Notes: a model not told the origin generated them from the letters alone. Positions 6,298 through 29,792 are shown, counted from the stretch's first letter. The stretch is DNA of 64,000 bases from Alphaproteobacteria bacterium (GCA_965221125.1 CBDCRW010000004.1:608001-672000); one strand, 5' to 3'. Numbers and translations are program-made.

Positions 6298-6702
6298 ATG
6301 AGCGAAGACGACCGCAACGAGGCCTCCGGCGGCGAGAACGCGGCCGACAAGGCGGGCGATGTCCGCAAGACACGGGGCATCCGCTTCTCGGAATCGGAGT
6401 GGGAAGAGGTCAAACGCGCCGCCCTGGCCCATGACAAGCCGGCCGCCGAGTTCGTCCGCGAGCGCATCCTCGCGCTCGCGCGGAACCCCGAGGAGGCGGA
6501 TCGGGGGCCGGAGAGCGCCGAGCCGGCCCCGGTTGCGGCCTCGATGGCGCCGCTGATCGAGCGGATGTTCCGCTACACCTGGTTCCTGGCGACCGAAAGG
6601 CGCGACGCAATGGCCCGCGAAGGGCGCGGGGACGAGCTCGACAAGCTGGTCGCCGAGGCCCGGGCGTTCCAGGACTCGCTGCGCCGGGGCGCGGCGGACT
6701 GA
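6298..6702 (+). CDS. Ribbon-helix-helix relaxosome accessory-like protein, copy 1 (intact)
   Basis: RKTRGIRFSESEWEEVKRAA..KPAAEFVRERIL fits an RHH (MobC/NikA-like) pattern. Immediately downstream of traI. Confidence 0.65.
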   Translation: MSEDDRNEASGGENAADKAGDVRKTRGIRFSESEWEEVKRAALAHDKPAAEFVRERILALARNPEEADRGPESAEPAPVAASMAPLIERMFRYTWFLATERRDAMAREGRGDELDKLVAEARAFQDSLRRGAAD

Positions 6703-6817
6703 GCCGGACAGGCGCCGGCCACGATCCGCGCGGTGAGCGCGCGCACGCGCTCGGCGCCGGGGGTCACCATGCGATGCCACGAATGGACTGCGGCGCGCAA
6801 ATGCGCGCAAGCGTCGT

Positions 6818-6846
6818 TTGCTTTCGTGTTCCGTGTTTGGTATCAG
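6818..6846 (+). promoter_or_regulatory. Putative sigma70 promoter P1, cassette 1
   Basis: TTGCTT-N17-TATCAG with TGG before the -10. The same architecture is conserved in all three cassettes. Confidence 0.55.
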
Positions 6847-6862
6847 TCGCTTGGAATGGGTC

Positions 6863-6901
6863 GTGCGCTCTCCTTCGGAGAGTCCGCATCGGGTGTTTTT
6901 T
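6863..6901 (+). terminator. Leader hairpin (UUCG loop) plus T6 tract, candidate attenuator, cassette 1
   Basis: gtgcg-ctctc-cttcg-gagag-tc-cgcat followed by T6. Analogous hairpins occur in cassettes 2 and 3. Confidence 0.45.
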
Positions 6902-6922
6902 GCAGTCCGGAGGGGGGCGACC

Positions 6923-9900
6923 ATGGGTTTTGTGCGAGAGGCGTGGGCGGCGGTTGCGGCTGCCGCGGGCGAGGTCCGGGATCGGGGCTTGACAAGTGTC
7001 CTTGAGGCTCCCGTTATAATCAGCCGGATCGCCGGATCGCCGGATCGCCGGATCGCCGGATCGCCGGATCGCCGGATCGCCGGATCGCCGGATCGCCGGA
7101 TCGCCGGATCGCCGGATCGCCGGATCGCCGGATCGCCGGATCGCCGGATCGCCGGATCGCCCCACCTGCGTGCGCGTTCCGGCCATGATCGGGGCCGCAT
7201 GGCGGCGGCTCCTCCGTCGGACACCCTCTCCATCCTCCCCGCCTGAGTCTTCCGGTCTCGCCGCTGCGGGCGGTCTGCGCCGGGCCGCCGCCGCCGGCCT
7301 GCTCGGCCTGCCGCTGGCGTTCGGTCTCGCCGGCGCGGCGCAGGCCTACGAGGGCATCACGATCTCGGCGCCCCCGGACGCGCCAGAGGGACATTCGGGC
7401 CTGACGAACCAGACCTTCGAGGTGCGCCTTACCGGACCGGTCTCGGGCGACGTCAACTACAAGGTCTGCTTTTCCGGCACGGCCACGTACGCGGACGACT
7501 ACAATCCCACGCTCGGTGGGACCCAGCAGTCCTCCAATTGCGTCAACGGCCGCATCGGCAGGGGGCGGACGACTCCTGACAGCGCCATCGGCATCGCCGT
7601 GGTCGGCGACGAGATTTCGGAAAGCGGAAGATGGCGCGGCGAGTACGGCGAGACGGTGACCGCGCACCTGACCCTTGTCGGCGCGCAGCCGTGGGACCTT
7701 GACGGCCGCCGCGCCCACACGGTCACCCACACCATCCTGAACGACGACGTGGCCGTGAGTTTCCGGCAGGCCAACTACGAAGGCCGCGAAGGGAAGCGGC
7801 TCCGCATCCAGGTCGACCTGGTGGAAAGCACCCAAGGATACCCATGGAACGTCACGGTCCCGTTCACGTATACCCGGGGAACGGCGTCGTCCGGCGACTA
7901 CGACGCCTCGCGGACCTCGCTGACCTTCCGGCGCGGCGAGATCACGCAGGACCTGTACGTCGACCTGACCGACGACAGCAGCTTCGACAGTGGCGAGACG
8001 TTCACCATCGATTTGGACACGGCCAGCTTTCCGACCGGCATGTATGACAGCGGCATTGCGCGAGCACGGGTGACCATCAAGGACAACGACTACAGCATCA
8101 GCGCGAGTTCCAGCTCCCATGCAGTCCGGGAGGACGCGGGGGGCGTCAGCATCCCGGTGACCATCAGCCCCGCGCAGGAGCGCACGGTGGGCGTGCGCGT
8201 CAGTTTCAGCGACATTAACGCTTCCGGCGGCCAGGACTACATCGCGAAACACCACAGCTTTCCGGACGACATCCTGACCTTCCATCCCGGGGAGACCGCG
8301 AAGTGGATCTTCGTCCCGGTCGTCAACGACGGCGCCTTCGAGCAAAACGAGCTGTTCAAGGTGACGCTGACACAGACGGTCGGAGCGACGGATCCGGAAA
8401 CCGTGGATATCATCATCAAGGATCATCGGCCAGGCGACGGCGAATACACCAGCAAGCTGATCCTCGAACGGACCAGCCGGGACACCGTCTCGGAGGGGCA
8501 GAGCGCGACGTTCAGGCTCACGATGCATCCGGCTGTGCAGGAAGGCTCCACCGTCGCGGTGCTGCTGTCGCAGTCGGCCGACGACGGCGTGCGGGCGAAC
8601 TGGATCGCCGGTGCGCCGGAGACGCACGCGCACTACAAGACCGTCAGTTTCGCCCGAGGGGAAAGCGTGAAGACCCTGACGGTGCCGATCCGGAGCGACA
8701 GGCGCGACACCAACGGCACGCTCACCGTGGCGGCGATGGCGCCGGGCGACCACCCCGCCAGCACCGGCCCCTACACCGCGCGCGGGCAGAAAGTGGTCGC
8801 GAAGGTGCGCATCCTGGACACCACGGCGGACGGCAACCCCCACAGCAGCCCCCAGCAGACGGCCGCGGTCGAGGTCCCCTCCACGGCGGTGACCAACCTG
8901 CAGGTGACGGCGGTTGACGGGAACACGGCGAAGGCGACGTGGGACGCGGTTCCGCACGCCACCGGCTACGAGGTGGAGTGGGACGCGCTCGACGGCAACG
9001 GGCAGTCGATCGCCGCCGGCCTCCACGCCGGCGTGACCGCCACGACGCAGACGATCGAACACCAGGCGCCGGGGGCGGCGTCGCTCAGGGTGACGGTGGC
9101 GCCGGAACATGTCGACGGCAACGGCGACACGCAGGTGCTCGCCGGCCTCGCGGCCACGGCGGTACTCGACCTGTCGACGCCGCAGTCCGCGCAGGCGGAT
9201 TCTCTCCAGGCGGGCGCGGCGTCCTGCGATCTCGGGACGCTGCGCGCGGACATCGCGGGCTATATCGGCGAGCAGCCGGAGACGAGCGACCATGTGAAGC
9301 GCTGGAAGCGGGTGCTGGCGGCGTTCGACGGCAAGGCCGGGGGCATGACCGCCGCCGAGGCCGGGACGTATGCCGGCAAGGGCTGGACGCGCTGGGACCC
9401 GGTGGTGGTGGCGCTCGACTGCCTGGAGAAGGCCGCGACGCCGCAGGCGGAGACGCCGGCGGCGGTCCCCGAGCTCAGCCTGTCGGCCGGTCCCGCCGTG
9501 GACGAGGGCGGCAGTGCGGTCTTCACCGTCCATGCCGATCCGGCGCCGGCGGCGGAGCTCACGGTCGCCTTCACCGTCGCCCAGAGCGGCGAGTACCTGG
9601 ACGCGCCCGGCGCGGGCAGCCGGACGGTGACGCTTGCGGCGGGCGCCGCGAGCGCCACGCTCGCCATCGCCACGGCCGACGACGGGGCCGATGAGGCCGA
9701 CGGCTCGGTCGGCGTCACCCTCGACGCCGGCGCGGGCTACACCCTGGCGGCCGGCAAGGCGGCCGCGAAGGTCGCGGTGCGCGACAACGACACGCCGGTC
9801 GTGAGCGTGGCGGCGGGCACTGGCGTTACGGAGGGCGATCCGGCGACGTTCACGGTGACGGCGACGCCCGCGCCCGCCGCGCCGCTCACGGTGGCGCTGA

Positions 9901-12071
9901 CGGTGGGCCAGAGCGGGGACTTCGCGGCTGCCGGCGAGACCGGCGCCAGGGAGGTGACCGTTCCGACCGGGGGCAGTGCAGCCTTCGAGGTCGCGACGGC
10001 GGACGACAGCGCGGACGAGCCGGACGGATCGGTGGGCGCGGCCCTGCAGTCCGGAACGGGCTATGCGGTGGCGGATCCGCCGGCAGACGCGGCCACGGTC
10101 GCGGTCTCGGACGACGATGTCGCGGCGACGGGCGTGCCGACGCTCTCGGTGAACGACGTCGAGGTGAAGGAGGGTCCGTACCGGCGGGTCGAGTTCACGG
10201 TGACGCTCAGCAAGGCGTTGGAGAAGGGCGCCTGGTTCTACTACCGGGTGCGGGAGTCGAGCCCGGTGTCGGCGAAGCGGGGCGTGGACTTTTCGGCCTC
10301 TACCGGAAAGAAATTTGCGTCCATAAGGCCGGGCGCGACCGAGCACCGGATCATGGCGGCCCTGGTGATCGACGACAGCCACGACGAGGACCCGGAGACC
10401 TTCGAGATCGTACTCTCGGACGCGAACGGCGTGGCGATCGCGGACGGGGTGGGCGTGGCGACGATCGTCAACGACGACCCGATGCCGGCGGCGTGGCTCG
10501 CGCGGTTCGGTCGCACGGTGGCGGAGCAGGCGCTCGACGGGATTGCCGGGCGCATCGCGGCGCCGCGCGCGGCGGGCATGCAGGGCGCGATTGCCGGGCA
10601 GGCGCTGAGCTTCAATCCTGGATCGGGGTCCCCCGGATCGCAGACCGGCGCGGCGAACGACAACGCGGCCAGTGTCGGCTTCTCCGGCACCGGGCCGCTG
10701 GCGCTGTCCGGCCTCGACGCTCCCGCCGGGCGCTTCGGCCCTGCCGGCCTCGGGGCTGGCTTCGGCCATGGCGTCCACGGTTTCGGCCAGGGCTTCGCGC
10801 AATCCCGTACCATGACGGGGCTGGAGGCGCTGCTGGGCTCGAGCTTCACCGCGACGGGAGAGACCGACGCCACCGGCGGCAGCCTCGCCTTCTGGGGCCT
10901 CGCGGCGCAGTCGAGCTTCGACGGCCGCGAGGGGACGTTCTCGCTCGACGGCGAGACGACGACGGCCATGCTGGGCGCGGACTATGCGCGGGGCAGGTGG
11001 CTGGTCGGGCTCGCGCTGATGCAGAGTTCCGGCGAGGGTGGCTACGCCGACAGGGCTGCCAGCCCCCGCCCCGCTTTGCAGACCTGCCCGGAGGATGCGG
11101 ACGAGAGTCTGTGCAACGGCGCGGTGCGGGAGGGCGACGGCGACGTGGAGGCGTCTCTGACGGCCGCCGTCCCGTACGCGGCCATCCAGTCGTCCGAACG
11201 TCTCAGGCTCTGGGGCGCGGCGGGCTACGGCACCGGCGAGGTGACGCTGAAGCCCGCCATGGGCGGCTCGCTCAAGTCGGACCTCTCCTGGACGATGGCG
11301 GCGGCGGGCGCGCGGAGCGATCTTCTCCAGCCTCCGAAGGAAGGGAGCGGTCCCACGCTCGCGCTGACCGCGGACGCCTTGTGGGCGCGGACCTCGTCGG
11401 AGAAGACGCGAGAGCTGGCGGCGTCGGACTCCGACGTGACCCGGCTGCGGTTGGGTCTGGAAGGCAGCTATCGCATCGCCACCGAGGGCGGCGGCCGGAT
11501 CGTGCCCAGGGTGGAGATCGGCGCGCGCCATGACGGCGGCGACGCGGAGACCGGCTTCGGCGTCGAGCTCGGCGGCGGCATCGCCTGGACCGATCCGGCG
11601 CTCGGGCTCTCGCTCGACCTCTCGGGCCGGACGCTGATCGCGCACGGCAACGACGATCTGGAAGACCGGGGCTTCGCGGCCTCGCTCGCCTTCGATCCGA
11701 ACCCGGGCACCGAGCGCGGCCTGTCGCTGACGCTCCGCCAGCGGATCGGCGGCCGGGCCGAGGGCGGGCTCGACGCGCTGTTCGCGACCGACCCGCTGGC
11801 CGACCGCACCGGTATCGGCGAGGTGGAGAGCCGATGGCAGGCGGAAGCCGCGTACGGCCTCCCGGCCCTCGCGGGGCGCTTCACCGGCAGCCCGCATGTG
11901 GGGCTCGGGCTCGCCACGGGCGCGCGCGACTACACGCTCGGCTGGCGGCTCTCGCCGGCGGCCAACGCCAACGCGCCCGATCTCTCCTTCGGCGTGAGGG
12001 CGACGCGCCGGGAGAGCGATACGGCGGCGCCGGAACACATCGCCGGGTTCGAGCTTCGCGCCCGCTGGTAA
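6923..12071 (+). CDS. Adhesin A1: Calx-beta/FN3-like passenger plus C-terminal autotransporter-like beta-barrel. Out of frame with ATG 6923 at 17 repeats; main ORF is 7170..12071
   Basis: Signal peptide ending AGAAQA, Calx-beta-like repeats (EG..A.FTV...DD..DE.DG), barrel with a terminal aromatic residue (ELRARW). The start codon is uncertain (6923 vs 7185). Confidence 0.8.
6989..7020 (+). promoter_or_regulatory. Putative promoter P2, TTGACA-N20-TATAAT, cassette 1
   Basis: Perfect consensus hexamers in GC-rich DNA, with an unusually long 20-bp spacer, directly before the repeat tract. Confidence 0.45.
7023..7158 (+). repeat. Simple sequence repeat (GCCGGATC)x17
   Basis: 17 perfect 8-bp units counted directly, starting 100 nt after the SD-linked ATG at 6923. 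Confidence 0.97.
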
Positions 12072-12086
12072 TCGCGACGCCCGGCG

Positions 12087-12790
12087 ATGGCGCGGCAGGT
12101 CCGCGGATGGGACGCCCTGCGGGCCTGGCGCTTCATCCGGGCCAGCAGGGCGTATCGCGACGCCTGGGCGAAGCGCCGCCATCTCTCCGGCCTGCCGGAG
12201 CGGGCGCCGTTCCCGGTGCGCCTCCAGACCGCCGCCGATCTCGCCGCCGCGGCCTGGGGCATGGCGGCATTTGAAGACCCGCATGCGGAACGGCCGCTCG
12301 CGCCCTTCTGGACCCAGGCCGGCGTGATCGACGGCCGGGTGGCGCCGGACGCGCCGCCGCTGGCCCGGCTTGCCGCTGAGGGCGGGGCAACGCTCTCCGG
12401 GCTGCGGCTGGGCGACGGCGCCTTGATGCTCCGGATCGAACGGGAGGGCCGGTCGGTCCAGGTCCGGCTTCCCCGAGGCGCCGGCTTCCCCGAGGATGGC
12501 GGGCTGTTGCTGGTGCGCGAAGTGGCGAGCATCGAGGATGTCTGGCTCGGCGCCCCGGTCCCTCGGCCGGGGCGGGAACGGGGGATGACGGAGACACCGA
12601 ACTTCTGCTGGCGCTGGAAAGCGAGGCGGAAGGACTCACCCGGCGCGAGGTCGCGGTGCGGCTCTGGGGCCGGGAACGGGTTGCGGAGGAGTACCACGAC
12701 GGCAGCTGGATGCATACCCGCGTCAAGCGCCGCCGGTCCCGCGCGAAGGCGATCCTGAAACAGTATCGCGACATGGCGACAGGCAAGTAA
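12087..12790 (+). CDS. FseA-like (DUF6499 + DUF2285) transcriptional activator, copy 1. The C-terminal HTH lies in the -1 frame
   Basis: N-terminal AWRFIRASRAYRDAW and WG..FEDP motifs. The -1 frame reads LLLALESEAEGLTRREVAVRLWGRERVAEEY..RVKRR..YRDM to TAA 12790, which resembles the DUF2285 HTH. Confidence 0.6.
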
Positions 12791-12958
12791 TGCGCGGGCC
12801 GCGCCGCCGCGCGCCGATTGCCGAAATGCCGGGCGTTCGTTTGCCGTCGGCACGGAAACCCGGGCTCGGCCGCCGCGATTCCGCCTCGCGCGCGCCGTAT
12901 CGGGGGCGCCATGCGGCGCGCGGAAGACGCCGATGAGAGGCTGCAGAGGGGCCGAAGG

Positions 12959-13363
12959 ATGAGCGACGACGACCGTGACGACGTCTCCGGCGGCGCGAAT
13001 GCGGCCGAAAAGGCCGGCGAAGTCCGCAAGACACGGGGCATCCCCTTCTCGGGTTCCGAGCGGGAGGAGGTCAAACGCGCCGCCCTGGCCGACGACAAGC
13101 CGGCCGCCGAGTTCGTCCGCGAGCACATCCTCGCGCTCGCGCGGAACCCCGAGGTGGCGGTTCGGGCGCGGACGAGCGTCGAACCGGCCGCGGTTGCGGC
13201 TTCGATGGCGGCGCCGATCGAGCGGGTGTTCCGCTACACCTGGTTCCTGGCGACCGAAAGGCGGGACGCGATGGTCCGCGAAGGACGCGGGGACGAGCTC
13301 GACAGGCTGGTCGCCGAGGCCCGGGCGTTCCAGGACGCGCTCGGCCGGGGCGACGCCGACTGA
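12959..13363 (+). CDS. RHH protein copy 2 (substitutions in the predicted DNA-binding strand)
   Basis: Paralog of 6298..6702; GIRFSESEW has become GIPFSGSER. Confidence 0.6.
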   Translation: MSDDDRDDVSGGANAAEKAGEVRKTRGIPFSGSEREEVKRAALADDKPAAEFVREHILALARNPEVAVRARTSVEPAAVAASMAAPIERVFRYTWFLATERRDAMVREGRGDELDRLVAEARAFQDALGRGDAD

Positions 13364-13431
13364 GCGAAGCCGGCGGTCGCAGGACCGGTTCCTCGACGAT
13401 CCGCTTGCCGGCTTCCGTTGAAACACCCTGG

Positions 13432-13607
13432 CCGAGCGAAAGCAGGTCAGGACCACCAACGCCATCGAACGAAGGTTCTGCGGGGTCCGAAGACGAACCC
13501 GGCCCATGGGAGCCTTCCGGGACAAGACCTCCATCGACCGCATCCTCTGCGCGGTCTTCATCCACGGATACAAGTCCCGGGGAATCGCCAGCCCCGTCTC
13601 CCCGACC
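13432..13607 (+). pseudogene. IS256-family transposase C-terminal remnant
   Basis: Translates as ERKQVRTTNAIERRFCGVRRRTRPMGAFRDKTSIDRILCAVF, matching the IS256 C-terminal TN.IER..RRT motif. Confidence 0.7.
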
Positions 13608-13614
13608 ACGGAGT

Positions 13615-13699
13615 TTGCCTTCGCGTTTCGAGTTTGGTACTAGGCGGCCCGAACTGGGAGATGCGCCCTCTCCGGAGGCGCAGAACCCGGTGTTTTTTT
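13615..13699 (+). promoter_or_regulatory. P1 promoter plus leader hairpin/T7 tract, cassette 2
   Basis: TTGCCT-N17-TACTAG; stems actggg/cccggt and tgcgcc/ggcgca; T7 at 13693-13699. Confidence 0.55.
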
Positions 13700-13722
13700 G
13701 TTTGCGGTCCGGGGGGATGACC

Positions 13723-16700
13723 ATGGGTTCAGTGCGGGGAGCGTGGACGGCGATTGCGGTTGCCCTGGACGGGGTTCGAAGTCGGAGGTGTTCGCGCGGG
13801 CACTTGACAAACCCGGACGGTGCAGCTGTTAAAATAAGCCGGGACGCCGGGACGCCGGGACGCCGGGACGCCGGGACGCCTCACCTGCGCTCGCCTGCTG
13901 GTCATGAGGGCGCTCGCATGGCTGTGCCGCACATCTTCTCCGCCTGACCGTTCTGCCGCCAGCCGCGCCGAGCCGCGCCGCATGCGCTCGCCGGGGCGCC
14001 GCCTGCAAGGTGCCCTTTGTTCGTCGGTGCTGTTGCTGCTGACGGCGATTGCCTCCGGCGAGGCCTGGGCGGCACCCTATATCAGTATCGCCGCCTCTCC
14101 CGCCTCGGTGGAGGAAGGCGAGACGATCACGTTCACGATAACCAGAACCGGGTCCACGTCGTCGGCCCTGGAGCAGATCGTGATCCACCTCCCCCAATTT
14201 GGCAGTCCTTTTGTCTGCGACGGCAGCCGGTGCCCGGTCAAGTACGTCCGACCGCTGGATGTCGGCTACGAGTGCGCCATCCTCCCCGGCGTGAGCAATC
14301 ATCGCTGCTTTACCATTCCTGCCGGCAAGAGTTCGATCACCGTCGACGTGCCGACCTACGCCCACACGCTGCATGAGGAGGATGGGCGGGTCGGCTTCTT
14401 CATACGGGGTGGATATCCCGAGTATACCGGGATGAACCATTACTGGATAAAGGGACCCAGCCGCCGCTACGTGACGGTGCGCGACGGGCCGGACGTGACG
14501 CCGGACGTCAAGGCGACGCTGAGCATTCCGGACAACCGCGCGACCGAGGGGGATGCCAGCGATCCGGCAACGGTGGCATTGACGTTGACCGGGTCAGATC
14601 CCACTGCCCTTGTTTCGCCGACAGTGCCTTCAAGCCGGGAATTGATCCGGGGCGAGAGCCTCAAGGTGCCGCTTCAGTTCTCGGGCGGTACGCCCGGAAC
14701 GGACTTCACGCTGTCCCTGTCGGGCAACCCCGCCGGGGTCTCGCTCGATGCGAGCACCGGCACCGTCACCTTCACCGGCCCGTCCAGCGGCAGCAGCGCG
14801 GCCGCCGCGACGCTGATCCTTACTGCCGCGGACGATCCGGATGCGGACGGCGCCACCGTGACCGCGAGTATTGGGCATGTGACCGCCTCGGGCATCCCCG
14901 GGAGCGCCAGCGGCGCACGGAACGGCGACGGACGGATTCTCCTGATCGATCCCGACACCCCGCCGCCGCCGCAAATCAGCATTTCTGGAGGAGCCGATGT
15001 CACCGAAGGCAGCGCGGCCATCTTCACGCTGAACGCCGACCCCGCGCCATCGGATGACATCAGCGTCGAAGTGGAGGTGTCGGACAGCGGCGACTTCGCC
15101 ACCGGCGGACAGGACGGCTCCCGGACGGTCACGATCGGCGCAAGCGGCAGCGCCAGTCTCGAGGTCGCCACCGCGAACGATGGCCGGGACGAGCCCGACG
15201 GCGCGATTACCGCGACGATCGGGAGCGGCGACGGCTACACGGTGGACAGCCGGAGCCACACGGCTTCGGTCGCGGTGGCGGACGATGACGTGCCGGTGGT
15301 GGCCTTTGCCTCGGCCTCGTCGGGCGCGGGGGAAGCCGCGGGCACGCGCAACGTGACGCTCGATCTCGATCCGGCGCCGGGCGCCGGCATCACGCTCGAC
15401 TACAGCGTCGGCGGCACGGCGACCGAGGGCAGCGGCAACGACTTCACCATCGAGAGCTCCGGCACCGTGTCGGTCGCGGCCGGCGCCGCGACGGCGACCA
15501 TCCCGATCGCGATCGTCGACGACGCCAGCAATGAGAGCGCCGAGACCGTGGTGCTGACGCTGACCGACGGCACGGGCTACACGCCGGGCGCCACGAAGGC
15601 CCACACCCTCACCATTACCGACGACGACGCGGCTGTCGTCCCGCCCGGCGTGACGGTCTCGACCGACGCGCTCAGCCTTGCCGAGGGCGGCGCGGCGGGC
15701 AGCTACACGGTGGTGCTGGCGAGCAAGCCGACGGCGGATGTGACGGTGACGGCAACGAGCGGCGATGCGGGCAAGGTGAAGGTCCACGGCCCCGGCGGCA
15801 CGGCGGGCGCGAGCGCCACGCTCACCTTCACCTCGACGACCTGGAACCGGGCGCAGAGCGTGACGGTGACGCCACAGGAGGATGCGGACGCCGACGACGA
15901 GAGCGTCGCCATTACCCATGCCGTCAGCAATACCGGCGGCTATGGCGGGGTGACGGTCGGGTCCGTCACGGTCTCGGTGGACGATGACGAGACGCCGACG
16001 CTTTCGGTCGCGGTCGCGCCGGCGTCCGCGAACGAGGGCGCGGCGGGTGCTAAGGGTTACGCGACGGTGACCTTCGGCCTTGCCCCGACGCGGGCACAGG
16101 CGACGAGCTTCAAGGTGTGCCTGAAGAGCACCGGCACCGCGACCCGGGGCGGCAGCGCGGACTACCTGTTCGTCGGGCCGTCGAGCGACACACCCGTGAG
16201 CCTTTCCAACGACTGCCACAGCTACACGCTGCCCGCGAACGCGGCGAGCGGGCAGGCGCGGCTGCTGATCCGGGGCGACGGCGAGGTCGAGCCCGACGAG
16301 ACGGTGGTGGTGGAACTGCGCGACCCGCCGCAGGGGGTGGCGGTCTCCGGGGCCGCGGGCCTTGCGACCTACACCATCGTCAACGATGACACCGCCCCCA
16401 ATGCCTGCCATGCGGATGTGAAGCCGGACGTGCAGGGCTATGCCGGGGAGACGCACTACGGAACGGCGCACGTGACGCGCTGGATGAAGGTGCTGGCCGC
16501 CTTCGGCGACGACAACGGCCATGCGGCGATGGACGTCGCCGAGGCGAAGCAGATGCGGGACCAGTACTCGCCGGGCCGCTGGAACCCGGTGATAACGGCG
16601 CTCCAGTGCCTGGAGAATGCCGGCACGACCAATACCGGTCCCGAGATCACGGTCACGGGCGGCAGTGGCGTTACCGAGGGCGGCAATGCGGTGTTCACGG

Positions 16701-19594: not shown

Positions 19595-19609
19595 TCGCGC
19601 CGCCCGGCG

Positions 19610-22198: not shown

Positions 22199-22222
22199 GT
22201 TGAAGTCCGGAGGGGGGCGACC

Positions 22223-25200
22223 ATGGGTTTTGTGCGAGAGGCGTGGGCGGCGGTTGCGGCTGCCGCGGGCGAGGTCCGGGATCGGGGCTTGACAAGTTGC
22301 CGTGAGGTTCCCGTTATAATCAGCCGGATCGCCGGATCGCCGGATCGCCGGATCGCCGGATCGCCGGATCGCCGGATCGCCGGATCGCCGGATCGCCGGA
22401 TCGCCGGATCGCCGGATCGCCGGATCGCCCCACCTGCGCGCCTGCCGGTCATGATCGGCTCCGCATGGCGGCGGCTCCTCCGGCCTTCATCCCCGCCTGA
22501 GACATCCGCTCCCGCCGGCCGCGGCCTTCGGCGCGGCCTGCTGCCCGCGCTGCTGTGCCTGCCGCTGCTCGCGGGCCTCGCCGCCCCGGCCGCCGCGCAG
22601 ACCACCCCCTCGATCGCTGTGGCCGTCGCGACCTCGCCGACCGAGGGCAACCCTGCTGAATTCGCGCTGAGTGCAACAAGTTCGGGGTCGTGGTCGTCGT
22701 CGCTGACAGTGACCGTGAACGTCGCCCAGACCGGCAATTATGTCGCCGCGAACCATCTGGGCAACAGGGACATCACGATTCCGGCGGGCCAGTTTTACGC
22801 ATCGACGACGTTCTCCATCCCGACGATCGGGGACAATACGGATCAGGCGGAGGGCTCGATCACCGTGACGGTGCAGTCCGGCACCGGCTACACGGTGACT
22901 GGCGGAACGGCCACCGCAAGTGTCGTGGACGACGATCCGGTCGAGGTCTCGCTGACCGGCGGCGGCCGGATCAGGGACGGCAACACGGGCGATTCCGTCA
23001 ACATCGAGATTTCGGTCCCGCGCCCCGTCGACGGCGAACTCATCAGTGTTCCGCTGGTCATGACTTCAGGCACCGGCGCGCAACTGCCCGGGTCGACGAG
23101 CCCGGATTTCAGCTATGCGGTGACGGGAGGAACGGTCACCGCTCAAGCCGGCACGGCCACGCCGGTCCTGCGGTTCGGCACCGGCAGCAGTCGCATGACG
23201 TTGACGCTGACTCCCACGGCGGGCGAGGACAGCGACAGCGCCGATGAAACGATCACCGTCGGCTTTGGGACGTTCACCCAGAGCGTCCAGGGCGTCGGTG
23301 GCGGCGCGAAGGCGCATCCCGCGAACAACAGCGCCACGGTCAGGATCTCCGAGCCCCGGACGATATCGTTCACGGGTGTCGCCACATCGGTGTCCGGGCC
23401 GCTTGATCCCGCCTCGACGGACGGGACCCACTCGGTGAGCGAGAGCGTCGGCGCCTTATGGGTGGAGCTCGCATTGAGCCAGGCCCCGGAGTACACGACC
23501 ACCGTTTATGTCCGGGAGAAGAAGTCCGGCACGACGGCCACGCACCGCCAGGACTACAAACGCAGCGGCACAGGGTTCGGCTGGATCGCGAATTTCGGCG
23601 GCGGCAGTCGCAAGGCGCGGTTCCGGGTCCCGATCGTCGCCGACGGGATCGCCGACGACAAGGAGACGCTGACGCTCGAGATCTACAACGTCAGCAGCAT
23701 CGAACCCAATTTCAGCCTGGGCCACACGATCGACGCGGCCGGAACCTACACGCTCACGATCCGGGACTACACGGCGACCAATGCCAGCGACTATGTCGAC
23801 GTGTGGCTGTCGAAGGACGAATACGAAGTGACCGAGGGCGAGGCGCTCGAGGCGACCGTCCACCTGCAGCATCCGCGGGATGCGGACACCACGATCAACC
23901 TGACCGAGACGCGCGGCACGGCCACGGACGGCACGGACTACACCGCCGGCCCGTACTCCGTCACGGTCCCGGCGGGCAGGACGAGCGCGACCTTCACGGT
24001 CCAGACCACGCAGGACGAGGAGCAGGAACTGGGTGATGAGACATTCCGGGTGCGGATCGACGATTCCAGCCTGCCGGCAGGGTTCGCGACGTCGGACGGG
24101 ACCGGCAGGCCGGAAGAGGCCGTGGTCGAGATCGTCGACGACGAATACACCTTCTGTTTCGGGGCAAACAGCTATTTGGCTCCGGAGGGCGAGGAAGGGG
24201 TCCTGCCGCTCACGTTCTCGCGGCCGTTGCCGCAGGCAGGCTCGTTCCGGTTCCGCTACTTGAACCTGAACGCCAGCGACAGCGACTACACGCGAGTGTT
24301 CGACTTCCCGGTCTTTTTCGATCTCCCCGCGGGGACGGAGGAGTACACGCTCAGGCTCCCAGTCGCCGCGGACCTGCTGTACGAGGACAACGAGCTTCTC
24401 AAGATCACGTCCATTACGCCGACCATTCCGAATGGAATACTCGAATGCTCAACCGACATCATCATCAAGGACCGGAGCCGCGAGGTGGATTTCCAGGCCG
24501 CGGCCTACACGGCCCATGAGGGCCGGGAGGCGGAGGTGGGGATCCGGGTGGTCGAACGGGGAACCGACGATCTCATGACGCTCCGCAAGCCGGTCACGCT
24601 GCACATCGCCGCCACGGGCACGGGCAGCGCCACGGCGGGCACGGACTACGCGGCGGGCCCGTGGACTCTCACCATCCCGGCGGGGGCCTCCAGGGGCGTC
24701 CTGCGGATTCCGGTCCATGCGGACGGGGCCAATGACGACGGGGAGACCATCGATCTGGAGATCAAGCGGGCGACCGGGGGCTCCGGCGTGGCTCCCGGGC
24801 GACAGCTTGGCGACCAGAACGGCAACGTGCTGTCCGCAAACCTCCACGTCCGGGTCAGGGATACCACTGATATGCCCAACGGCGCCGCGACGGTGACGAT
24901 CCAGGGCGCGTCGGGGGCGCCGTCGGGCACGCGGTTGGTATGGATCGAGGCCGGCCCGCAGGTGTCCGAGGGCAGTGACGCCACCTTCACGCTGAAGGCC
25001 GACCCGGCGCCGCTTGCGCCGCTGGATGTCAGCATCCATGTCGGGGATACCGGGACGTCCCAGACACGGCATCTGGCCGAGGAGCACCGGGGCCTGCGGA
25101 CGGCGACCGTCGACACCACGGGGAGCACCGTCTTCACCGTGCCGACGCAGACGAACGGATCGCAGCACACCAGCGCGATCCGGGTGGCGCTGATGGACCC

Positions 25201-28200
25201 GTCCCTGCTGTTCGCCAGCCAGGAGGCCGACTACATGCCGGGCAAGCCGAGCGTGGCCTATGTCGGGGTGGACGCGGCCGTGCCCAAGTTCAAGGCGCAG
25301 CGGGACGCGCTGTCGGCGGTCGCGGAGGCGCCGAGCGCGCCGGTCTCGAACCTCCGGGTGACGGCCGTCGACGCCACGAGCGCGCAGGCGACCTGGGACG
25401 CTGTTCCCCATGCCACGGCCTATCGGCTGGAATGGGAAGGGGGCAGCGAGGGCGACTACATCGGCGGGGGCTCGAACGGCATCACCGGCACCTCGGCGAC
25501 GATCCACCACAATGCCCCGGCGGCGATGACGCTGACGGTCCGGGTGGTCCCGTGGCATGTGGACGACTACGGCCAGGTGCAGATGCACGATGGGCTCGCG
25601 GCCACGGCGACGCTCGCCGTGGGGCCGGCCGATCCGCTGGCCGCCGCGCGGAACGCCTGCGTGCCGGCGAGCGTCCGCTCGGACGTGGAGGGCTATGCGG
25701 GCGAGACGCATTACGGCGCGGCGCATGTGAAACGCTGGAACAGGGCGCTTGCAGCCTTCGGCGTCGACACCGGCGAGACGGCGATGACCGGGGACGAGGC
25801 GCGGGACATGATGGACAAATACACGGCGAAACGCTGGCGGCCGATCGTCGAGGCCATCGAGTGCATCGAGGAGGCGGAGAAGGCCGCCCAGGCGGCGTCC
25901 CTCCCCGAGATCGCGATCTCGGGCGGCGGCGATGTGACGGAGGGGGCGTCGGCGTCCTTCACCGTCACGGCGACGCCTGCGCCGTCTTCGCCGCTCGCGG
26001 TGACGCTGACGGTCGGCCAGAGCGGCGACTTCGCCGCGTCGGGCCAGACCGGCACGAGGCAGGTCACCGTGCCCACGGGGGGCAGCGTGACCGTCCAGGT
26101 CGCGACGGTGGACGATGCGGTGCTGGAGGCCGACGGCTCGGTGAGCGCGACCGTCGCGGCCGGGACCGGCTACAACGTGGCGGCGGCGCCGGCCGATACG
26201 GCTTCGGTCGCGGTCGCCGACGACGACACGCCAGTGGTGAGCATCGCCGCCGGGAACGGGGTGACGGAGGGCAGCCCGGCGTCCTTCACCGTCACGGCCA
26301 GTCCCGCGCCGTCTTCGCCGCTCGCGGTGAAACTGACGGTCGGCCAGAGCGGGGACTATGCCGCCGCCGGCGAGACCGGCGCCAGGGAGGTGACCGTGCC
26401 GACCGGGGGCAGCGCGACCGTGCAGGTGGCGACGGCGGACGACAGCGCGGACGAGCCGGACGGTTCGGTGAGCGTGACCGTCGGGGCCGGAACCGGCTAT
26501 GCGGTGGCGGCCTCGCCGGGCGATACGGCCTCGGTGGCGGTGGCGGACGACGATGCCGCGCCCCCGGTGTCGGAACTCACCATCGGCGATGTGACGGCCA
26601 ATGAGAGCGACCGGCTGATGTGGTTCACGGTCACGCTGAGCCCGGCCTCGGACCGTGCGGTATCGGTCGATTACCGGACCCGGGAGTCGAACCCGGTCTC
26701 GGCGCGCAAGCACGATGACTTTCTGCAGATCGACTTCGGGGATGTCACGTTCAGTCCGGGCGAGACGAGCAAGCGGTTCTGGGTCTACATGTTCGACGAC
26801 GGTCACGACGAGGGATCGGAGACCTTCGAGGTCGCGCTGTCGCATCCGACGGGCGGCGCGAGGATCGCCGACGGGGTGGCGGTCGGCACCATCGTGAACT
26901 CGGACCCGATGCCGGCGGCGTGGCTGGCGCGCTTCGGGCGCACGGCGGCGGAGCAGGCGCTTGACGGCATTGCGGGCCGCATCGCGGCGCCGCGCGAGGC
27001 CGGCGCCCGGGGCACGATTGCCGGGCAGGCGCTGAGCTTCGATCCCGGATCGGGCTCCCCCGGATCGCAGTCCGGGGCGGCGAACGACAACGCGGCCATC
27101 GCCGGCGTCGAAGGCGCCGGGCCGCTGGCGCTGTCCGGCCTCGATACTCCTGCCGCGCGCTTCGGTGCGGGTGGCTTCGGCCATGACGCTCACGGCTTCG
27201 GCCAGGGCTTCGCGCAATCCCGCACCATGACGGGGCTGGAGGCGCTGCTGGGCTCCAGCTTCACCGCGACGGGGGAGACCGACGCCACCGGCGGCAGCCT
27301 CGCCTTCTGGGGCCGCGCGGCGCAGTCGAGCTTCGACGGCCGCGAGGGCACCTTCTCGCTCGACGGCGAGACGACCACGGCGATGCTGGGCGCGGACTAT
27401 GCGCGCGGCAAGTGGCTGGTCGGCCTCGCGCTGATGCAGAGTTCCGGCGAGGGCGGCTATGCCGATGCCGGTACGGGGTCCGTGCGCTGTCCCCAGGACC
27501 TGGATGCGGAGACGCGGGAGGTCCTCTGCGGCGGAGCCGTGCGGGAGGGCGACGGCGACGTTGAGGCGTCGCTGACGGCTGCCGTCCCCTATGCGGCCAT
27601 CCAGGCGTCCGAACGGCTCAGGCTCTGGGGCGTGGCCGGCTACGGCACGGGCGAGGTGACGCTGAAGCCCTCCGTGGGCGGCTCTCTCAGCTCCGACATC
27701 TCCTGGACCATGGCGGCAGCGGGCGCGCGGAGCGACCTGCTGGTCCCGCCGAAGGAAGGCTCCGGTCCCACGCTGGCGCTGACTGCGGACGCCTTGTGGG
27801 CGCGCACGTCCTCGGAGAAGACGCACGAGCTTGCGGCGTCGGACTCCGACGTGACGCGCTTGCGGGTCGGCCTGGAGGGCGGCTACGCCATCGCCACGGA
27901 GGGCGGCGGCCGGATCGTGCCCCGGGTCGAGATCGGCGCGCGCCATGACGGGGGCGACGCGGAGACCGGCTTCGGCGTGGAGCTCGGCGGCGGCATTGCC
28001 TGGACCGATCCGGCGATCGGGCTCTCGCTCGACCTGTCGGGCCGGACGCTGATCGCGCACGGCAACGACGATCTGGAGGACCAGGGCTTCGCGGCCTCGC
28101 TCGCCTTCGATCCGAACCCGGGCACGGAGCGCGGCCTGTCGCTGACGCTCAGCCAGGACTGGGGCGGCTCGGCCAAGGGCGGGCTGGACGCGCTGTTCGC

Positions 28201-28486
28201 GACCGACCCGCTGGCGGACCGTGCGGGTACGGCCGAAGCCACAAGCCGCTGGCAGGCGGAGGCGGCCTACGGCCTCCCGGCCTTCTCGGGACGGTTCACC
28301 GGCAGCCCGCATGTCGGGCTGGGGCTCGCCACGGGCGAACGCGACTACACGCTCGGCTGGCGGCTCTCGCCGGCGGCCAACGCCAACACGCCCGATCTCT
28401 CCTTCGGGGTGAAGGCCACGCGGCGCGAGAGCGAGGGGGTCGAGCCGGAGCACACGGTCGGATTGGAGCTTAGGGCGAACTGGTAA
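22223..28486 (+). CDS. Adhesin A3: Calx-beta/FN3 autotransporter-like protein, in frame through the repeat (ON)
   Basis: GGAGGGGGG SD before ATG 22223. Continuous ORF through the RRIAGSPD repeats to a signal peptide (LAAPAAA|Q) and a barrel ending ELRANW. Confidence 0.85.
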   Translation: MGFVREAWAAVAAAAGEVRDRGLTSCREVPVIISRIAGSPDRRIAGSPDRRIAGSPDRRIAGSPDRRIAPPARLPVMIGSAWRRLLRPSSPPETSAPAGRGLRRGLLPALLCLPLLAGLAAPAAAQTTPSIAVAVATSPTEGNPAEFALSATSSGSWSSSLTVTVNVAQTGNYVAANHLGNRDITIPAGQFYASTTFSIPTIGDNTDQAEGSITVTVQSGTGYTVTGGTATASVVDDDPVEVSLTGGGRIRDGNTGDSVNIEISVPRPVDGELISVPLVMTSGTGAQLPGSTSPDFSYAVTGGTVTAQAGTATPVLRFGTGSSRMTLTLTPTAGEDSDSADETITVGFGTFTQSVQGVGGGAKAHPANNSATVRISEPRTISFTGVATSVSGPLDPASTDGTHSVSESVGALWVELALSQAPEYTTTVYVREKKSGTTATHRQDYKRSGTGFGWIANFGGGSRKARFRVPIVADGIADDKETLTLEIYNVSSIEPNFSLGHTIDAAGTYTLTIRDYTATNASDYVDVWLSKDEYEVTEGEALEATVHLQHPRDADTTINLTETRGTATDGTDYTAGPYSVTVPAGRTSATFTVQTTQDEEQELGDETFRVRIDDSSLPAGFATSDGTGRPEEAVVEIVDDEYTFCFGANSYLAPEGEEGVLPLTFSRPLPQAGSFRFRYLNLNASDSDYTRVFDFPVFFDLPAGTEEYTLRLPVAADLLYEDNELLKITSITPTIPNGILECSTDIIIKDRSREVDFQAAAYTAHEGREAEVGIRVVERGTDDLMTLRKPVTLHIAATGTGSATAGTDYAAGPWTLTIPAGASRGVLRIPVHADGANDDGETIDLEIKRATGGSGVAPGRQLGDQNGNVLSANLHVRVRDTTDMPNGAATVTIQGASGAPSGTRLVWIEAGPQVSEGSDATFTLKADPAPLAPLDVSIHVGDTGTSQTRHLAEEHRGLRTATVDTTGSTVFTVPTQTNGSQHTSAIRVALMDPSLLFASQEADYMPGKPSVAYVGVDAAVPKFKAQRDALSAVAEAPSAPVSNLRVTAVDATSAQATWDAVPHATAYRLEWEGGSEGDYIGGGSNGITGTSATIHHNAPAAMTLTVRVVPWHVDDYGQVQMHDGLAATATLAVGPADPLAAARNACVPASVRSDVEGYAGETHYGAAHVKRWNRALAAFGVDTGETAMTGDEARDMMDKYTAKRWRPIVEAIECIEEAEKAAQAASLPEIAISGGGDVTEGASASFTVTATPAPSSPLAVTLTVGQSGDFAASGQTGTRQVTVPTGGSVTVQVATVDDAVLEADGSVSATVAAGTGYNVAAAPADTASVAVADDDTPVVSIAAGNGVTEGSPASFTVTASPAPSSPLAVKLTVGQSGDYAAAGETGAREVTVPTGGSATVQVATADDSADEPDGSVSVTVGAGTGYAVAASPGDTASVAVADDDAAPPVSELTIGDVTANESDRLMWFTVTLSPASDRAVSVDYRTRESNPVSARKHDDFLQIDFGDVTFSPGETSKRFWVYMFDDGHDEGSETFEVALSHPTGGARIADGVAVGTIVNSDPMPAAWLARFGRTAAEQALDGIAGRIAAPREAGARGTIAGQALSFDPGSGSPGSQSGAANDNAAIAGVEGAGPLALSGLDTPAARFGAGGFGHDAHGFGQGFAQSRTMTGLEALLGSSFTATGETDATGGSLAFWGRAAQSSFDGREGTFSLDGETTTAMLGADYARGKWLVGLALMQSSGEGGYADAGTGSVRCPQDLDAETREVLCGGAVREGDGDVEASLTAAVPYAAIQASERLRLWGVAGYGTGEVTLKPSVGGSLSSDISWTMAAAGARSDLLVPPKEGSGPTLALTADALWARTSSEKTHELAASDSDVTRLRVGLEGGYAIATEGGGRIVPRVEIGARHDGGDAETGFGVELGGGIAWTDPAIGLSLDLSGRTLIAHGNDDLEDQGFAASLAFDPNPGTERGLSLTLSQDWGGSAKGGLDALFATDPLADRAGTAEATSRWQAEAAYGLPAFSGRFTGSPHVGLGLATGERDYTLGWRLSPAANANTPDLSFGVKATRRESEGVEPEHTVGLELRANW
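22289..22320 (+). promoter_or_regulatory. P2 TTGACA-N20-TATAAT, cassette 3
   Basis: As in cassette 1. Confidence 0.45.
22323..22426 (+). repeat. Simple sequence repeat (GCCGGATC)x13
   Basis: 13 perfect units; keeps ATG 22223 in frame with adhesin A3. Confidence 0.97.
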
Positions 28487-28501
28487 TCGCCTCGCCCGGC
28501 G

Positions 28502-29205
28502 ATGGCGCGGCAGGTTCGCGGATGGGACGCCTTGCGGGCCTGGCGCTTCATCCGGGCCAGCAGGGCCTATCGCGACGCCTGGGCGAAGCGCCGCCATCTC
28601 TCCGGCCTGCCGGAACGCGCGCCGTTCCCGGTGCGCCTCCAGACCGCCGCCGATCTCGCGGCCATGGCCTGGGGCATGGCGGCCTTTGAAGACCCCTATG
28701 CGGAGCGGCCGCTCGCGCCGTTCTGGACGCAGGCCGGCGTGATCGACGGCTGGGTGGCGCCGGACGCGCCGCCCCTGGCCCGGCTCGCTGCGGAAGGCGG
28801 GGCGACGCTCACCGGGCTGCGGCTCGGCGACGGCGCGCTGATGCTCCGGATCGAGCGGGAGGGCCGGTCGGTCCAGGTCCGGCTTCCGCGCGGCGCCGCC
28901 TTCCCCGAGGATGGCGGCCTCCTGCTGGTCCGCGAGGTCGCGAGCATCGAGGATGTCTGGCTCGGCGCCCCGGTCCCTCGGCCGGGGCGGGCACGGGGGA
29001 GGAAGGAGACACCGAACTTCTGCTGGCGCTGGAAAGCGAGGCGGACGGGCTCACGCAGCGGCAGGTCGCGGTGCGGCTCTGGGGCTTGGAGCGGGTGGCG
29101 GAGGAGTACCACGACGGCAGCTGGATGCATACCCGCGTCAAGCGCCGCCGGTCCCGCGCGAAGGCGATCCTGAAGCAGTACCGCGACATGGCGCTGGGCA
29201 AGTAG
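28502..29205 (+). CDS. FseA-like (DUF6499 + DUF2285) activator, copy 3. The C-terminal HTH lies in the -1 frame
   Basis: Near-identical to copy 1, with the same frame break near a G-run; the HTH frame ends TAG 29205. Confidence 0.6.
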
Positions 29206-29386
29206 CCCGGAGGCCGCGCCGCGGCGCTTTGCGGCGGTGCGCCGATAGCCGAAATGCCGGGCGTTCGTTTGCCATCGGCACGGAAATCCGGGCCCGGCCG
29301 CCGCGCTTCCGCCTCGCGCACGCCGTATCCGGGGCGCCATGCGGCGCGCGGAAGACGCCGATGAGAGGCTGTAGAGGGGCCGAAGG

Positions 29387-29792
29387 ATGAGCGACGACGA
29401 CCGTGACGACGTCTCCGGCGGCACGAATGCGGCCGAAAAGGCGGGCGGCGTCCGCAAGACGGGGGGCATCCGCTTCCCGGAATCGGAGTGGGAAGAGGTC
29501 AGGCGCGCCGCGCTGGCCACGGAAGGCCCGTCACCTGCAGCTCGTCCGCAAGCCCATCCTCGCGCTCCCATGGAGCCCTGACGGCGCGGATCGGACGCCG
29601 AAGAGCGTCGAACCGGCCCCGGTCGAAGGTTCGATGGCGCCGCCGATCGAGCGGATGTTGCGCTACACCTGGTTCCTGGCGACCGCACGGCGCGACGCGA
29701 TGGTCCGCGAAGGGCGCGGGGACGATCTCGACAGGCTGGTCGCGGAAGCCCGCTCCTTCCAGGACGCGCTGCGCCGGGACGCCGCCGACTGA
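29387..29792 (+). pseudogene. RHH protein copy 4, frameshifted
   Basis: The N-half (29387 frame) and C-half (29403..29792 frame) match copy 1 but lie in different frames. Confidence 0.7.

Follow-up and report, generated by a model that had tools for sequence, protein, structure and literature searches.

The three tandem cassettes described here lie in a 64,000-nt stretch of an alphaproteobacterial genome assembly (GCA_965221125.1 CBDCRW010000004.1:608001-672000; the whole stretch is called the window, and positions are window coordinates unless a contig is named), and each of them carries a perfect array of an 8-nt unit between an ATG preceded by a Shine-Dalgarno (SD) sequence and the signal peptide of a large, probably autotransporter-type surface protein. 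We consider it fairly probable that these arrays act as frame-dependent translational switches, that is, as slipped-strand contingency loci in which the tract lies inside the translated 5' end and translation starts at the upstream ATG. In this model, ribosomes would begin at the SD-preceded upstream ATG (6923 in cassette 1, 13717-13723 in cassette 2 and 22223 in cassette 3; the cassettes are abbreviated A1, A2 and A3), read a leader of 22 to 35 codons and then enter the tract, three units of which correspond to eight codons rich in Gly, Pro, Ser and Arg. One of the three repeat-number classes would read on into the N-terminal extension and the signal peptide of the surface protein, and the wrong frames would be closed by conserved stop codons, namely the TGA of an ATGA motif and a second TGA located 41-59 nt further downstream. 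Gain or loss of a single unit during replication would shift the frame by -1 or +1, so that switching would occur within populations. The in-frame product would be exported and its extension removed together with the signal peptide.

An earlier note on this DNA, hereafter the initial annotation, had placed three 8-bp tracts between a conserved SD-ATG and a signal peptide, and this holds upon re-examination. Tandem Repeats Finder reports period-8 arrays with 100% matches at 7023-7161 (unit GCCGGATC, 17.4 copies), 13838-13880 (unit GCCGGGAC, 5.4 copies) and 22323-22429 (unit GCCGGATC, 13.4 copies). Such tracts are far from chance, since a regular-expression search of the genome (7 contigs, 4.58 Mb, 68-70% GC) finds only five perfect 8-mer tracts with at least three units; the two outside the array, C4:17551-17782 (29 units) and C4:579345-579456 (14 units), are located on the same contig as the array. 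The genome contains five other simple sequence repeats (SSRs) with a unit of 4-12 nt and at least four copies.

All elements of the cassettes are encoded on the plus strand. Cassette 1 starts with the SD sequence GGAGG (6909-6913) and the upstream ATG (6923-6925), followed by a promoter-like box, TTGACA-N20-TATAAT (hexamers at 6989-6994 and 7015-7020), which the frame of the upstream ATG reads as Leu-Thr ... Ile-Ile, and by 17 units of GCCGGATC (7023-7158), from which this frame exits into frame +2 of the main open reading frame (ORF). A downstream ATG, referred to as ATG1, overlaps a TGA that is the first stop of frame +1 (ATGA, 7185-7188), and a conserved TGA at 7244-7246 is the first stop of frame +2, where the present upstream ORF (6923-7246) ends. 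In cassette 2, a G-rich SD sequence (13711-13716) precedes upstream ATGs at 13717 and 13723, a box of the form TTGACA-N20-TAAAAT (13804-13835) and five units of GCCGGGAC (13838-13877), and the upstream frame stops at the TGA 13945-13947. Cassette 3 comprises the SD sequence GGAGG (22209-22213), the upstream ATG (22223), the box TTGACA-N20-TATAAT (22289-22320), 13 units of GCCGGATC (22323-22426) in frame with the upstream ATG, an ATGA at 22451 and the frame +2 stop at 22498-22500. In the window cassettes, the SD sequence is located 5-9 nt upstream of the ATG and the leader between upstream ATG and tract measures around 100-115 nt; a hydrophobic signal-peptide-like H-region and an AxA-type cleavage site, read by eye, follow 3' of each tract. 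Re-deriving the frame arithmetic of the initial annotation gave the same result: the 13 units of A3 keep its upstream ATG in frame, whereas A1 (n=17) would need 15 or 18 units and A2 (n=5) 3 or 6, so that both are one unit away from being in frame.

The same 5' module is present at two more loci of this genome, where it heads unrelated genes. Its core order from 5' to 3' is GGGGC, TTGACA, 20 nt, TATAAT, CA, tract, GCCCCACCTG..., ATGA and ...CCTGA. The two additional tracts precede genes for proteins of 915 and 902 amino acids with an arylsulfotransferase-like domain, one of which is followed by a gene for a 2486-aa Calx-beta protein. A pattern describing the tract alone matches in 5 of 49 genomes of the order, all five belonging to one genus, and enumeration of the tract ends yielded 27 module loci (five in G000, one in G027, eight in G034, four in G040 and nine in G041) as well as two methyltransferase-gene tracts and three chance matches. 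When box and tract were searched together over GenBank species genomes, 32 stretches were retrieved, nine of them with at least two units. All nine are GC-rich contigs of metagenome-assembled genomes (MAGs) labelled Alphaproteobacteria, Rhodospirillales or Defluviicoccus sp., one of which duplicates a G041 locus, and the module is thus found in eight MAG records beyond this duplicate; the remaining 23 stretches are single-unit chance matches in DNA of 33-54% GC. A scan of JGI metagenomes gave 21 pattern matches, none of which had a tract. Sponge and marine metagenome runs were among those containing 36-40% of the sampled words of the stretch.

The set analysed further comprises 34 loci, which are not independent of each other, and the leader alignment 11 leader types. 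The unit is always 8 nt long and occurs in six sequence variants (GCCGGATC, GCCGGGAC, GCCGGTCA, GCCGGGTC, GCCGGGAA and GCCAACCG), which bears out the remark of the initial annotation that cassette 2 uses a different 8-mer at the same position. The initial annotation had also proposed to compare repeat numbers across homologous loci. These range from 2 to 63 over the 34 loci and differ widely within groups of loci with near-identical flanks (29/14/11/14/11; 27/26/15; 40/63; 9/25/30; 17/11/7/14/9); likewise, A2 has five units and its counterpart L040 eight, with a unit differing by one base. Free variation in repeat number between near-identical flanks is the comparative signature of a hypermutable tract. 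Two features of contingency loci are therefore found in the sequences: a perfect repeat whose unit is not a multiple of three lies between the SD-ATG, the presumed start, and the signal peptide, and its copy number differs while the flanks are conserved. Since the module is attached to unrelated genes and occurs at 27 loci in five genomes, it is a device in its own right rather than a property of the conjugative element in which the initial annotation had seen it; the genes for a TrwB-type protein and TrwC upstream of the array point to a conjugative-type setting as such, while the attachment to mating partners suggested in the initial annotation is conjecture. Judged by its sequence, the module is a portable, genus-wide contingency-locus module, which heads autotransporters, arylsulfotransferase-like proteins and others.

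Several comparative observations argue that the tract is translated. GGAGG or a run of G residues is located 5-9 nt before the ATG in 10 of the 11 aligned leader types, and the SD-ATG frame is open through the tract at all 34 loci. The frame running from the box through the tract lacks stop codons in 30 of 30 module-locus rows, with in-frame upstream ATGs in L121, L126 and L128; L109 uses the other open frame, as read by eye. At five of the 34 loci, which represent three lineages (L029, L031, L105, L042 and L114), no ATG in the main frame is found between the tract and the signal-peptide region, and L029, L031 and L042 also lack a GTG or TTG there. The ORFs of these five loci are nevertheless open for 297-501 codons, except for L029 (168), and translation would have nowhere else to begin than upstream of the tract.

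A second line of evidence comes from the frames that do not lead into the main ORF. Both off-frames close within 13 and 28 codons of the tract, respectively: the stop of frame +1 is the TGA of ATGA or a TAG located 5 nt before ATG1, and the stop of frame +2 is a TGA 41-59 nt past ATG1. In a control with random positions inside genes of this genome, only 117 of 2853 (4.1%) had both off-frames closed as early as this, and the median open length of frame +2 was 234 codons. The stop of frame +2 depends on a T in the third codon position (CCT GA or TCT GA), and CCT accounts for 5.2% of the proline codons. ATGA is found in 29 of 29 loci with ATG1, across seven different second codons, and A occupies 19% of first codon positions. 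Conserved off-frame stops of this kind would serve no purpose unless ribosomes entered the region in all three frames. Furthermore, the box spacer itself varies like a coding sequence: its length variants of 14, 20 and 23 nt differ by multiples of three, and among 17 distinct N20 boxes, codon 6 is GAG, GAT or GAC in 13 and codon 7 GCT, GCC, GCG or GCA in 14, by our own reading. The public gene calls for P0012 (which is A3), P0024 and P0033 start at the upstream ATG and include the repeat peptide; gene callers, however, are no evidence of translation, and these calls show only that the frames are continuous. Taken together, starts, off-frame stops and codon-like variation favour translation through the tract. 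The slipped-strand translational switch of the initial annotation is thereby largely supported, but its description was incomplete, as it overlooked the promoter-like box TTGACA-N20-TATAAT, which is strictly conserved and stops 2 nt short of each window tract.

The conserved ATGA also invites a different interpretation, according to which the upstream ORF is always translated and the tract merely sets its end point, resulting in a three-state switch by translational coupling. Frame 0 would produce a fusion, frame +1 would stop at ATGA and restart at ATG1 to give a protein with a short N-terminus, and frame +2 would overshoot by 41-59 nt, thereby blocking ATG1 and switching the gene off; A1 and A2 would then be OFF and A3 would make the extended form. 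ATGA is invariant at the 29 loci with ATG1 irrespective of the second codon and despite the low frequency of A at first codon positions, ATG1 has no SD sequence of its own, as is usual for coupled starts, and the conserved stop of frame +2 relies on a third-position T that is rare. All three states are also represented among the 34 loci, with 7 fused, 6 stopping at -5 to +1 of ATG1, 18 stopping at the downstream TGA and 3 others in loci without ATG1; L109 was assigned by eye. However, fusion must work at the five loci that lack ATG1, the frame +1 ORFs of L106 and L118 end at a TAG 5 nt before ATG1 and not at ATGA, and an A at +4 is also generally preferred at start codons. We regard this coupling mechanism as distinctly unlikely. 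The statement of the initial annotation that one cassette is ON and two are OFF depends on which of these models applies, because a second ATG, always as ATGA, follows the tract within 3-46 nt at 29 of the 34 loci, and A2 contains an additional one at 13982.

Three simpler regularities were considered and did not hold. A bias in frame states was not found, as the distribution of 7 fused loci, 9 loci stopping near ATG1 or in the third frame and 18 loci with the downstream stop is not clearly different from uniform for loci that are not independent. The rule that each genome has exactly one in-frame locus is true for G000, G027, G034 and G040, but failed for G041, where L121 brings the number to two. 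Finally, a small conserved ORF from a second ATG (GCATGG) to the conserved TGA was rejected, since ATC replaces this ATG in L004-type loci.

A number of observations weigh against the frame-dependent switch. Only 7 of 34 loci are in frame, which is near the one in three expected if the frame were irrelevant. The leader peptides evolve near neutrality, with a ratio of non-synonymous to synonymous changes (pN/pS) of 0.57-1.38 in nine pairs, and thus show no coding signal. ATG1, kept at 29 of the 34 loci, could start translation at any repeat number, and in A2 the ATG at 13982 is immediately followed by a canonical signal peptide. For Sec signals, it is unusual that more than 100 residues precede the H-region. 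The repeat counts are those of single assemblies, and the 19 runs were examined as contigs rather than as reads; contigs of other runs over 7162-22322 are short and end in or near the tracts. Two RNA-library contigs, one (X15) covering 13621-13785 (hairpin, SD and upstream ATG of an A2-like copy; depth 22.3) and another covering 14006-14718 (depth 20.8), are not counted as evidence, as they may represent DNA carry-over.

Further objections concern the box and its surroundings. TTGACA and TA(T/A/C)AAT are conserved as nucleotides and not as codons, and reading them in frame would require the rarest codons of this genome: TTG makes up 3.5% of the leucine, ACA 2.7% of the threonine and ATA 2.0% of the isoleucine codons. 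If the box were a promoter, the upstream ATG would not be part of the mRNA. In addition, only 8-20 nt separate a hairpin and its T-run from the SD sequence in all three window cassettes, which leaves no room for a separate promoter of a transcript carrying the upstream ATG. In cassette 1, this upstream block (6816-6901, plus strand) consists of a relic resembling the 3' end of a Mutator/IS256 transposase gene (6816-6846), followed by the hairpin and T-run (around 6860-6901; terminator-like site 6882-6894 plus T-run). Changes in the stem among the three cassettes keep the pairing in the alignment, and the cassette-2 copy of the relic encodes a C-terminal transposase-like peptide with a weak match to Pfam Transposase_mut (E 0.15).

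In an alternative explanation, the box is a working promoter, transcription starts in the first repeat unit and the tract forms the 5' untranslated region (5'UTR) of an mRNA translated from ATG1 (7185, 13904 or 22451). The repeat number would then tune expression gradually via mRNA structure, processing or stability instead of the reading frame. The box ends 0-4 nt before every tract, and its hexamers are identical to the consensus or differ from it by one base. TTGAC is present at all 27 loci that were identified by their tract alone, and the second hexamer of these loci is TATAAT in 19, TACAAT in 2, TAAAAT in 1, GACAAT in 4 and lost in 1. The variants fall at positions 1 and 3, where the constraint on real -10 elements is lowest. 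Perfect TTGACA/TATAAT pairs occur four times in the genome, each time as a module box. Furthermore, 29 of 34 loci have ATG1 at a distance of 3-46 nt downstream of the tract, each time with an A at +4, and in the window cassettes the SD-ATG lies behind a terminator-like hairpin. The hmw genes of Haemophilus influenzae provide a published precedent (PMC12721329; PMC3309571).

The spacing of the hexamers speaks against this alternative, however, since the spacer measures 20 nt in most loci, 14 nt in four and 23 nt in one, whereas near-consensus pairs elsewhere in the genome peak at 16-17 nt. L072 lacks the second hexamer and has 11 units nonetheless, ATG1 has no SD sequence, and five loci have no ATG1 at all. 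A promoter at this place would also leave unexplained the upstream SD-ATG, the off-frame stops past ATG1 and the GAN-GCN pattern of the spacer. No long hairpin between the repeat RNA and a complementary arm was found: in RNAfold, leader and tract fold no better than shuffled sequences (z 0.95 for 6905-7260 and 0.11 for 13700-13960), and a comparison with Rfam revealed no family, only spurious miRNA matches on the repeat. Finally, a methyltransferase tract of the same genus, described below, has no box. On balance, we judge an untranslated, expression-tuning tract to be rather unlikely.

Other roles for the box were examined as well. A promoter scan allowing only spacers of 16-18 nt found no sigma-70 site in 6200-7400. 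Promoters of the sigma-54, RpoH or MerR/SoxR type were rejected, as the spacings do not fit the known consensus sequences and no conserved dyad is visible in the spacer by eye; the neighbouring 134-aa ORFs contain no MerR domain. A function of the box as a device required for tract instability is unlikely, because the methyltransferase tract is maintained without it. Upstream of the leader, L003, L006 and their relatives, six B-type loci, have a block around 110-330 nt upstream of the tract (including GGAATTGCGCTAATGATCGCA) that is more conserved than the leader, and in several other types the leader ATG is preceded by another conserved block (GGCTTACGGTACGCGAAATCGG...GCCGGGCGACAGGTTCGGAGG). 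The leader types outside the window carry a conserved upstream block of around 110 nt instead of relic and hairpin. It may be these blocks ahead of the leader ATG that act as the actual promoter and 5'UTR.

It could also be argued that the tracts have no regulatory role: in a region that tolerates them, they might have expanded neutrally or as selfish DNA, or they might be artefacts of assembly. The near-neutral evolution of the leader, the near-random frame states and the origin of the counts from single assemblies are compatible with this. However, the perfect tracts, with up to 63 units, occupy one and the same position at 34 loci from independent assemblies, their unit length never departs from 8 nt, the stops and starts in their flanks are conserved and the genome contains few other SSRs, which together make this explanation highly improbable. 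It is tempting to speculate that more than one of the proposed mechanisms is combined in a composite switch with three outputs, of a type that is not known from any SSR locus, in which the tract steers a strongly initiated upstream ORF to fusion, to a stop and restart at ATGA or to a silencing overshoot, and the mis-spaced box may add a transcript led by the tract; we put this forward tentatively and consider it unlikely as it stands.

The frame-dependent switch we favour has a well-known counterpart in the opa genes of Neisseria. These contain CTCTT repeats within the sequence coding for the leader peptide at around 11 loci, and are switched ON and OFF by the reading frame (PMC3745409); other contingency loci are similar as well. 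In both systems, a non-triplet SSR is located between the start codon and the mature outer-membrane adhesin, and many paralogous loci each have their own repeat number. In contrast to opa, the unit described here is GC-rich and measures 8 nt instead of 5 nt, and the tract is located upstream of the H-region within a long disordered extension, whereas the opa tract lies in the hydrophobic core. Furthermore, the module is attached to autotransporter-like proteins with Calx-beta passengers, has a second ATG (ATGA), fixed off-frame stops and a promoter-like box, and its host is a sponge-associated alphaproteobacterium with 69% GC. The initial annotation knew of no description of this architecture; since SSRs in leader coding sequences are established for opa (PMC3745409), the principle is not new, and only its present form is.

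For the hmw genes of H. influenzae, PMC12721329 describes a 7-bp tract that is transcribed as 5'UTR, with expression falling as the repeat number rises, and an 8-bp hmw unit, GCATCATC, is given for biogroup aegyptius in PMC3309571. Like the module, hmw1A and hmw2A have a hepta- or octanucleotide tract of strain-variable copy number directly 3' of promoter or promoter-like elements and 5' of a gene for a very large secreted adhesin. In hmw, however, translation does not include the tract; its RNA pairs with a G-rich arm and is cleaved by RNase III, which results in graded expression, while here an SD-ATG frame crosses the tract, both off-frames are stopped and no significant fold is found. A further parallel is offered by the tetranucleotide loci of the H. 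influenzae lic1/lic2 type, which have several upstream ATGs in different frames leading to different expression levels. These loci share with the module a repeat near the 5' end and more than one start codon; however, the lic starts lie upstream of the tract in different frames, whereas the second ATG of the module lies downstream of it and overlaps a stop codon.

The proteins headed by the three tracts are large and share their C-terminal part. The main ORF of cassette 1 (7185-12071, plus strand) encodes 1628 amino acids from ATG1 and comprises an N-terminal extension, an H-region with the cleavage site AQA|Y (around 7278-7346), the passenger and the barrel (11049-12068). Cassette 2 encodes 1896 amino acids from ATG1 (13904-19594, plus strand; ATGA), and the in-frame ATG at 13982, at which the public gene call of 1870 amino acids begins, precedes the canonical signal peptide. 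In cassette 3, the continuous ORF (22223-28486, plus strand) covers 2087 amino acids from the upstream ATG, as does the public gene call, and the product from ATG1 would have 2011. Calx-beta and LapA-like repeats were found in all three passengers (Calx-beta E 4.1e-30 in cassette 1, Pfam), and the N-terminal layout corresponds to that of type Va autotransporters, with an N-terminal Sec signal peptide (H-region and AxA site by eye) ahead of a Calx-beta/LapA-like passenger. The passengers differ from each other, while the C-terminal 870-910 or so residues are 76-77% identical among A1, A2 and A3, in agreement with the variable passenger and conserved C-terminus seen in the initial annotation. 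Its assignment of this C-terminus as a barrel is probably right, because four lines of evidence point in this direction. The last 340 residues match Pfam Autotransporter (PF03797; E 3.2e-5, 24.2 bits, below the curated cut-off of 26), 29 of the 30 nearest named clusters in the ESM-Atlas are autotransporter beta-domains (best score 0.97), an AlphaFold2 (AF2) model based on an alignment of 18 rows shows only beta structure, including 12 or more long strands, albeit at low confidence (pLDDT 48.3), and its Foldseek matches are exclusively outer-membrane barrels at low TM-scores (TamA, EspP, BamA, OmpG and BrkA at TM 0.22-0.41, and AIDA-I). The family of this domain comprises 2290 proteins at E<=1e-5 among 8000 candidates scored. 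The role as adhesin, also part of the earlier claim, is suggested by the domains. The DNA of the tract-less homologue P0066 was not found with the query used in the family's 44 genomes.

Two side observations concern these proteins. An unusually long N-terminal extension of around 30-75 amino acids rich in Ser, Pro and Arg lies between ATG1 and the H-region in the window (7185-7346) and in P0006, P0024, P0033, P0075 and P0094; a motif recurs there across lineages, SPPE-SSAS-..RRPASSSDSF..., with no internal start codon. The A3 passenger contains a 327-bp tandem duplication at 25934-26553 (1.9 copies, 83% matches) within the Calx-beta-like repeat region.

The enumeration of tract ends also revealed a tract of the same kind in an unrelated gene of the same genus. 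AGCCCGGC is repeated 14 times in L104 (G041:C2:182848-185875) and 13 times in L112 (G040:C7:472827-475854), on the strand opposite to the pattern match. This tract begins 45 nt after an SD-ATG, at the 5' end of a gene for an N6_N4 DNA methyltransferase (Pfam N6_N4_Mtase E 6.9e-47) with an Mrr-like domain. Its repeat number leaves the gene in frame in G041 but not in G040, and no other start codon lies close by; we regard it as a textbook example, which supports the view that the module tracts are translated. L104 and L112 are thus candidates for a phase-variable methyltransferase and, by extension, a phasevarion. Octanucleotide tracts are counted among the SSRs of phase-variable DNA methyltransferases in PMC7383803, and the two loci resemble such phasevarions in having an 8-mer tract 45 nt into the gene and opposite frame states in two genomes of one genus. 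Unlike the module, the methyltransferase tract is located outside this window and this genome and has no promoter-like box; the function of its gene is predicted from sequence.

What is new, then, is the family of GC-rich 8-nt units, the lengths of the tracts and their position ahead of the H-region in a long extension, together with a portable module that combines fixed off-frame stops, ATGA and an embedded promoter-like box. Also new is its occurrence at 4-9 loci per genome, plus a methyltransferase, in sponge-associated alphaproteobacteria, with a triplicated copy on a conjugative-type element. To our knowledge, repeat-driven phase variation has been described almost exclusively in animal pathogens whose genomes are small and AT-rich, and the units there measure 1-7 nt; here, tracts of up to 63 units are attached to several kinds of secreted proteins in a genus with 69% GC. 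In the literature searched, the coverage of which is incomplete, no description of SSR phase variation in sponge symbionts was found. If the module switches as proposed, stochastic surface variation would be part of the biology that links symbionts to hosts, phages or predators in sponges, and if the composite switch were true, 4-9 loci plus a methyltransferase per genome would provide combinatorial surface and epigenetic bet-hedging in a non-pathogenic sponge symbiont. Off-frame stops, ATGA and embedded box would furthermore make up a compact system for studying how transcription, upstream-ORF translation and repeat length are combined in one switch.

The array is located in a region that, by its gene content, is of the conjugative type and mobile, flanked by genes for conjugation and integration. 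Upstream, a TrwB-type coupling protein (type IV coupling protein, T4CP; 1077-3221, plus strand; Pfam TrwB_AAD_bind E 9.7e-142) is followed by a TrwC relaxase/helicase (3223-6213, plus strand; TrwC E 1.6e-85, AAA_30 E 9.3e-46), and downstream of the array there are genes for three tyrosine recombinases, SSB, a ParB-like protein and RadC. The recombinase-like ORFs (38423-43194, minus strand) encode 820, 495 and 414 amino acids consecutively, the first two overlapping as called, and are followed by the SSB gene, an arrangement typical of the integration module of mobile elements. No mating-pair-formation genes were seen in the 64-kb window.

The borders of the duplicated cassette unit are marked, as judged from their sequences, by paralogues of two small ORFs, neither of which belongs to a Pfam or NCBIfam family. 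A 134-aa ORF (6298-6702, plus strand) has paralogues at 12818-13363, in the C-terminal part of 19610-20284 and at 29403-29792, according to a comparison of translations by eye, and a 223-aa ORF, a type that comes after each adhesin gene (12087-12758, plus strand), has a paralogue at 28502-29173, its N-terminal 54 amino acids being found again from 19610 onwards. In cassette 2, a deletion has apparently joined the N-terminal 54 residues of the 223-aa type to the 134-aa type. Between cassettes 2 and 3, an insertion sequence of the IS256/Mutator family (20404-21864, minus strand) encodes a 398-aa transposase (Transposase_mut E 7.3e-122). Contigs of the runs X1 and X5 join 20403 to 21865 without this element, and the insertion is therefore polymorphic between samples.

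Two further kinds of repeats were encountered during the searches. A reversed control pattern (GGCCG every 8 nt) gave 8 matches in G028 and 28 in G040, which suggests that these genomes contain further 8-mer tracts with another core. In addition, 10-bp direct-repeat arrays, apparently intergenic, were found in G000: at C4:376250-376329, GGCACAAAGT is repeated eight times with degenerate copies on both sides, and C6 carries the reverse complement of GGCACAAAGT as well as four copies of AAGCCGAGAT (145246-145285 and 524221-524260). By their sequence, these 10-bp arrays look like iterons or protein-binding arrays.

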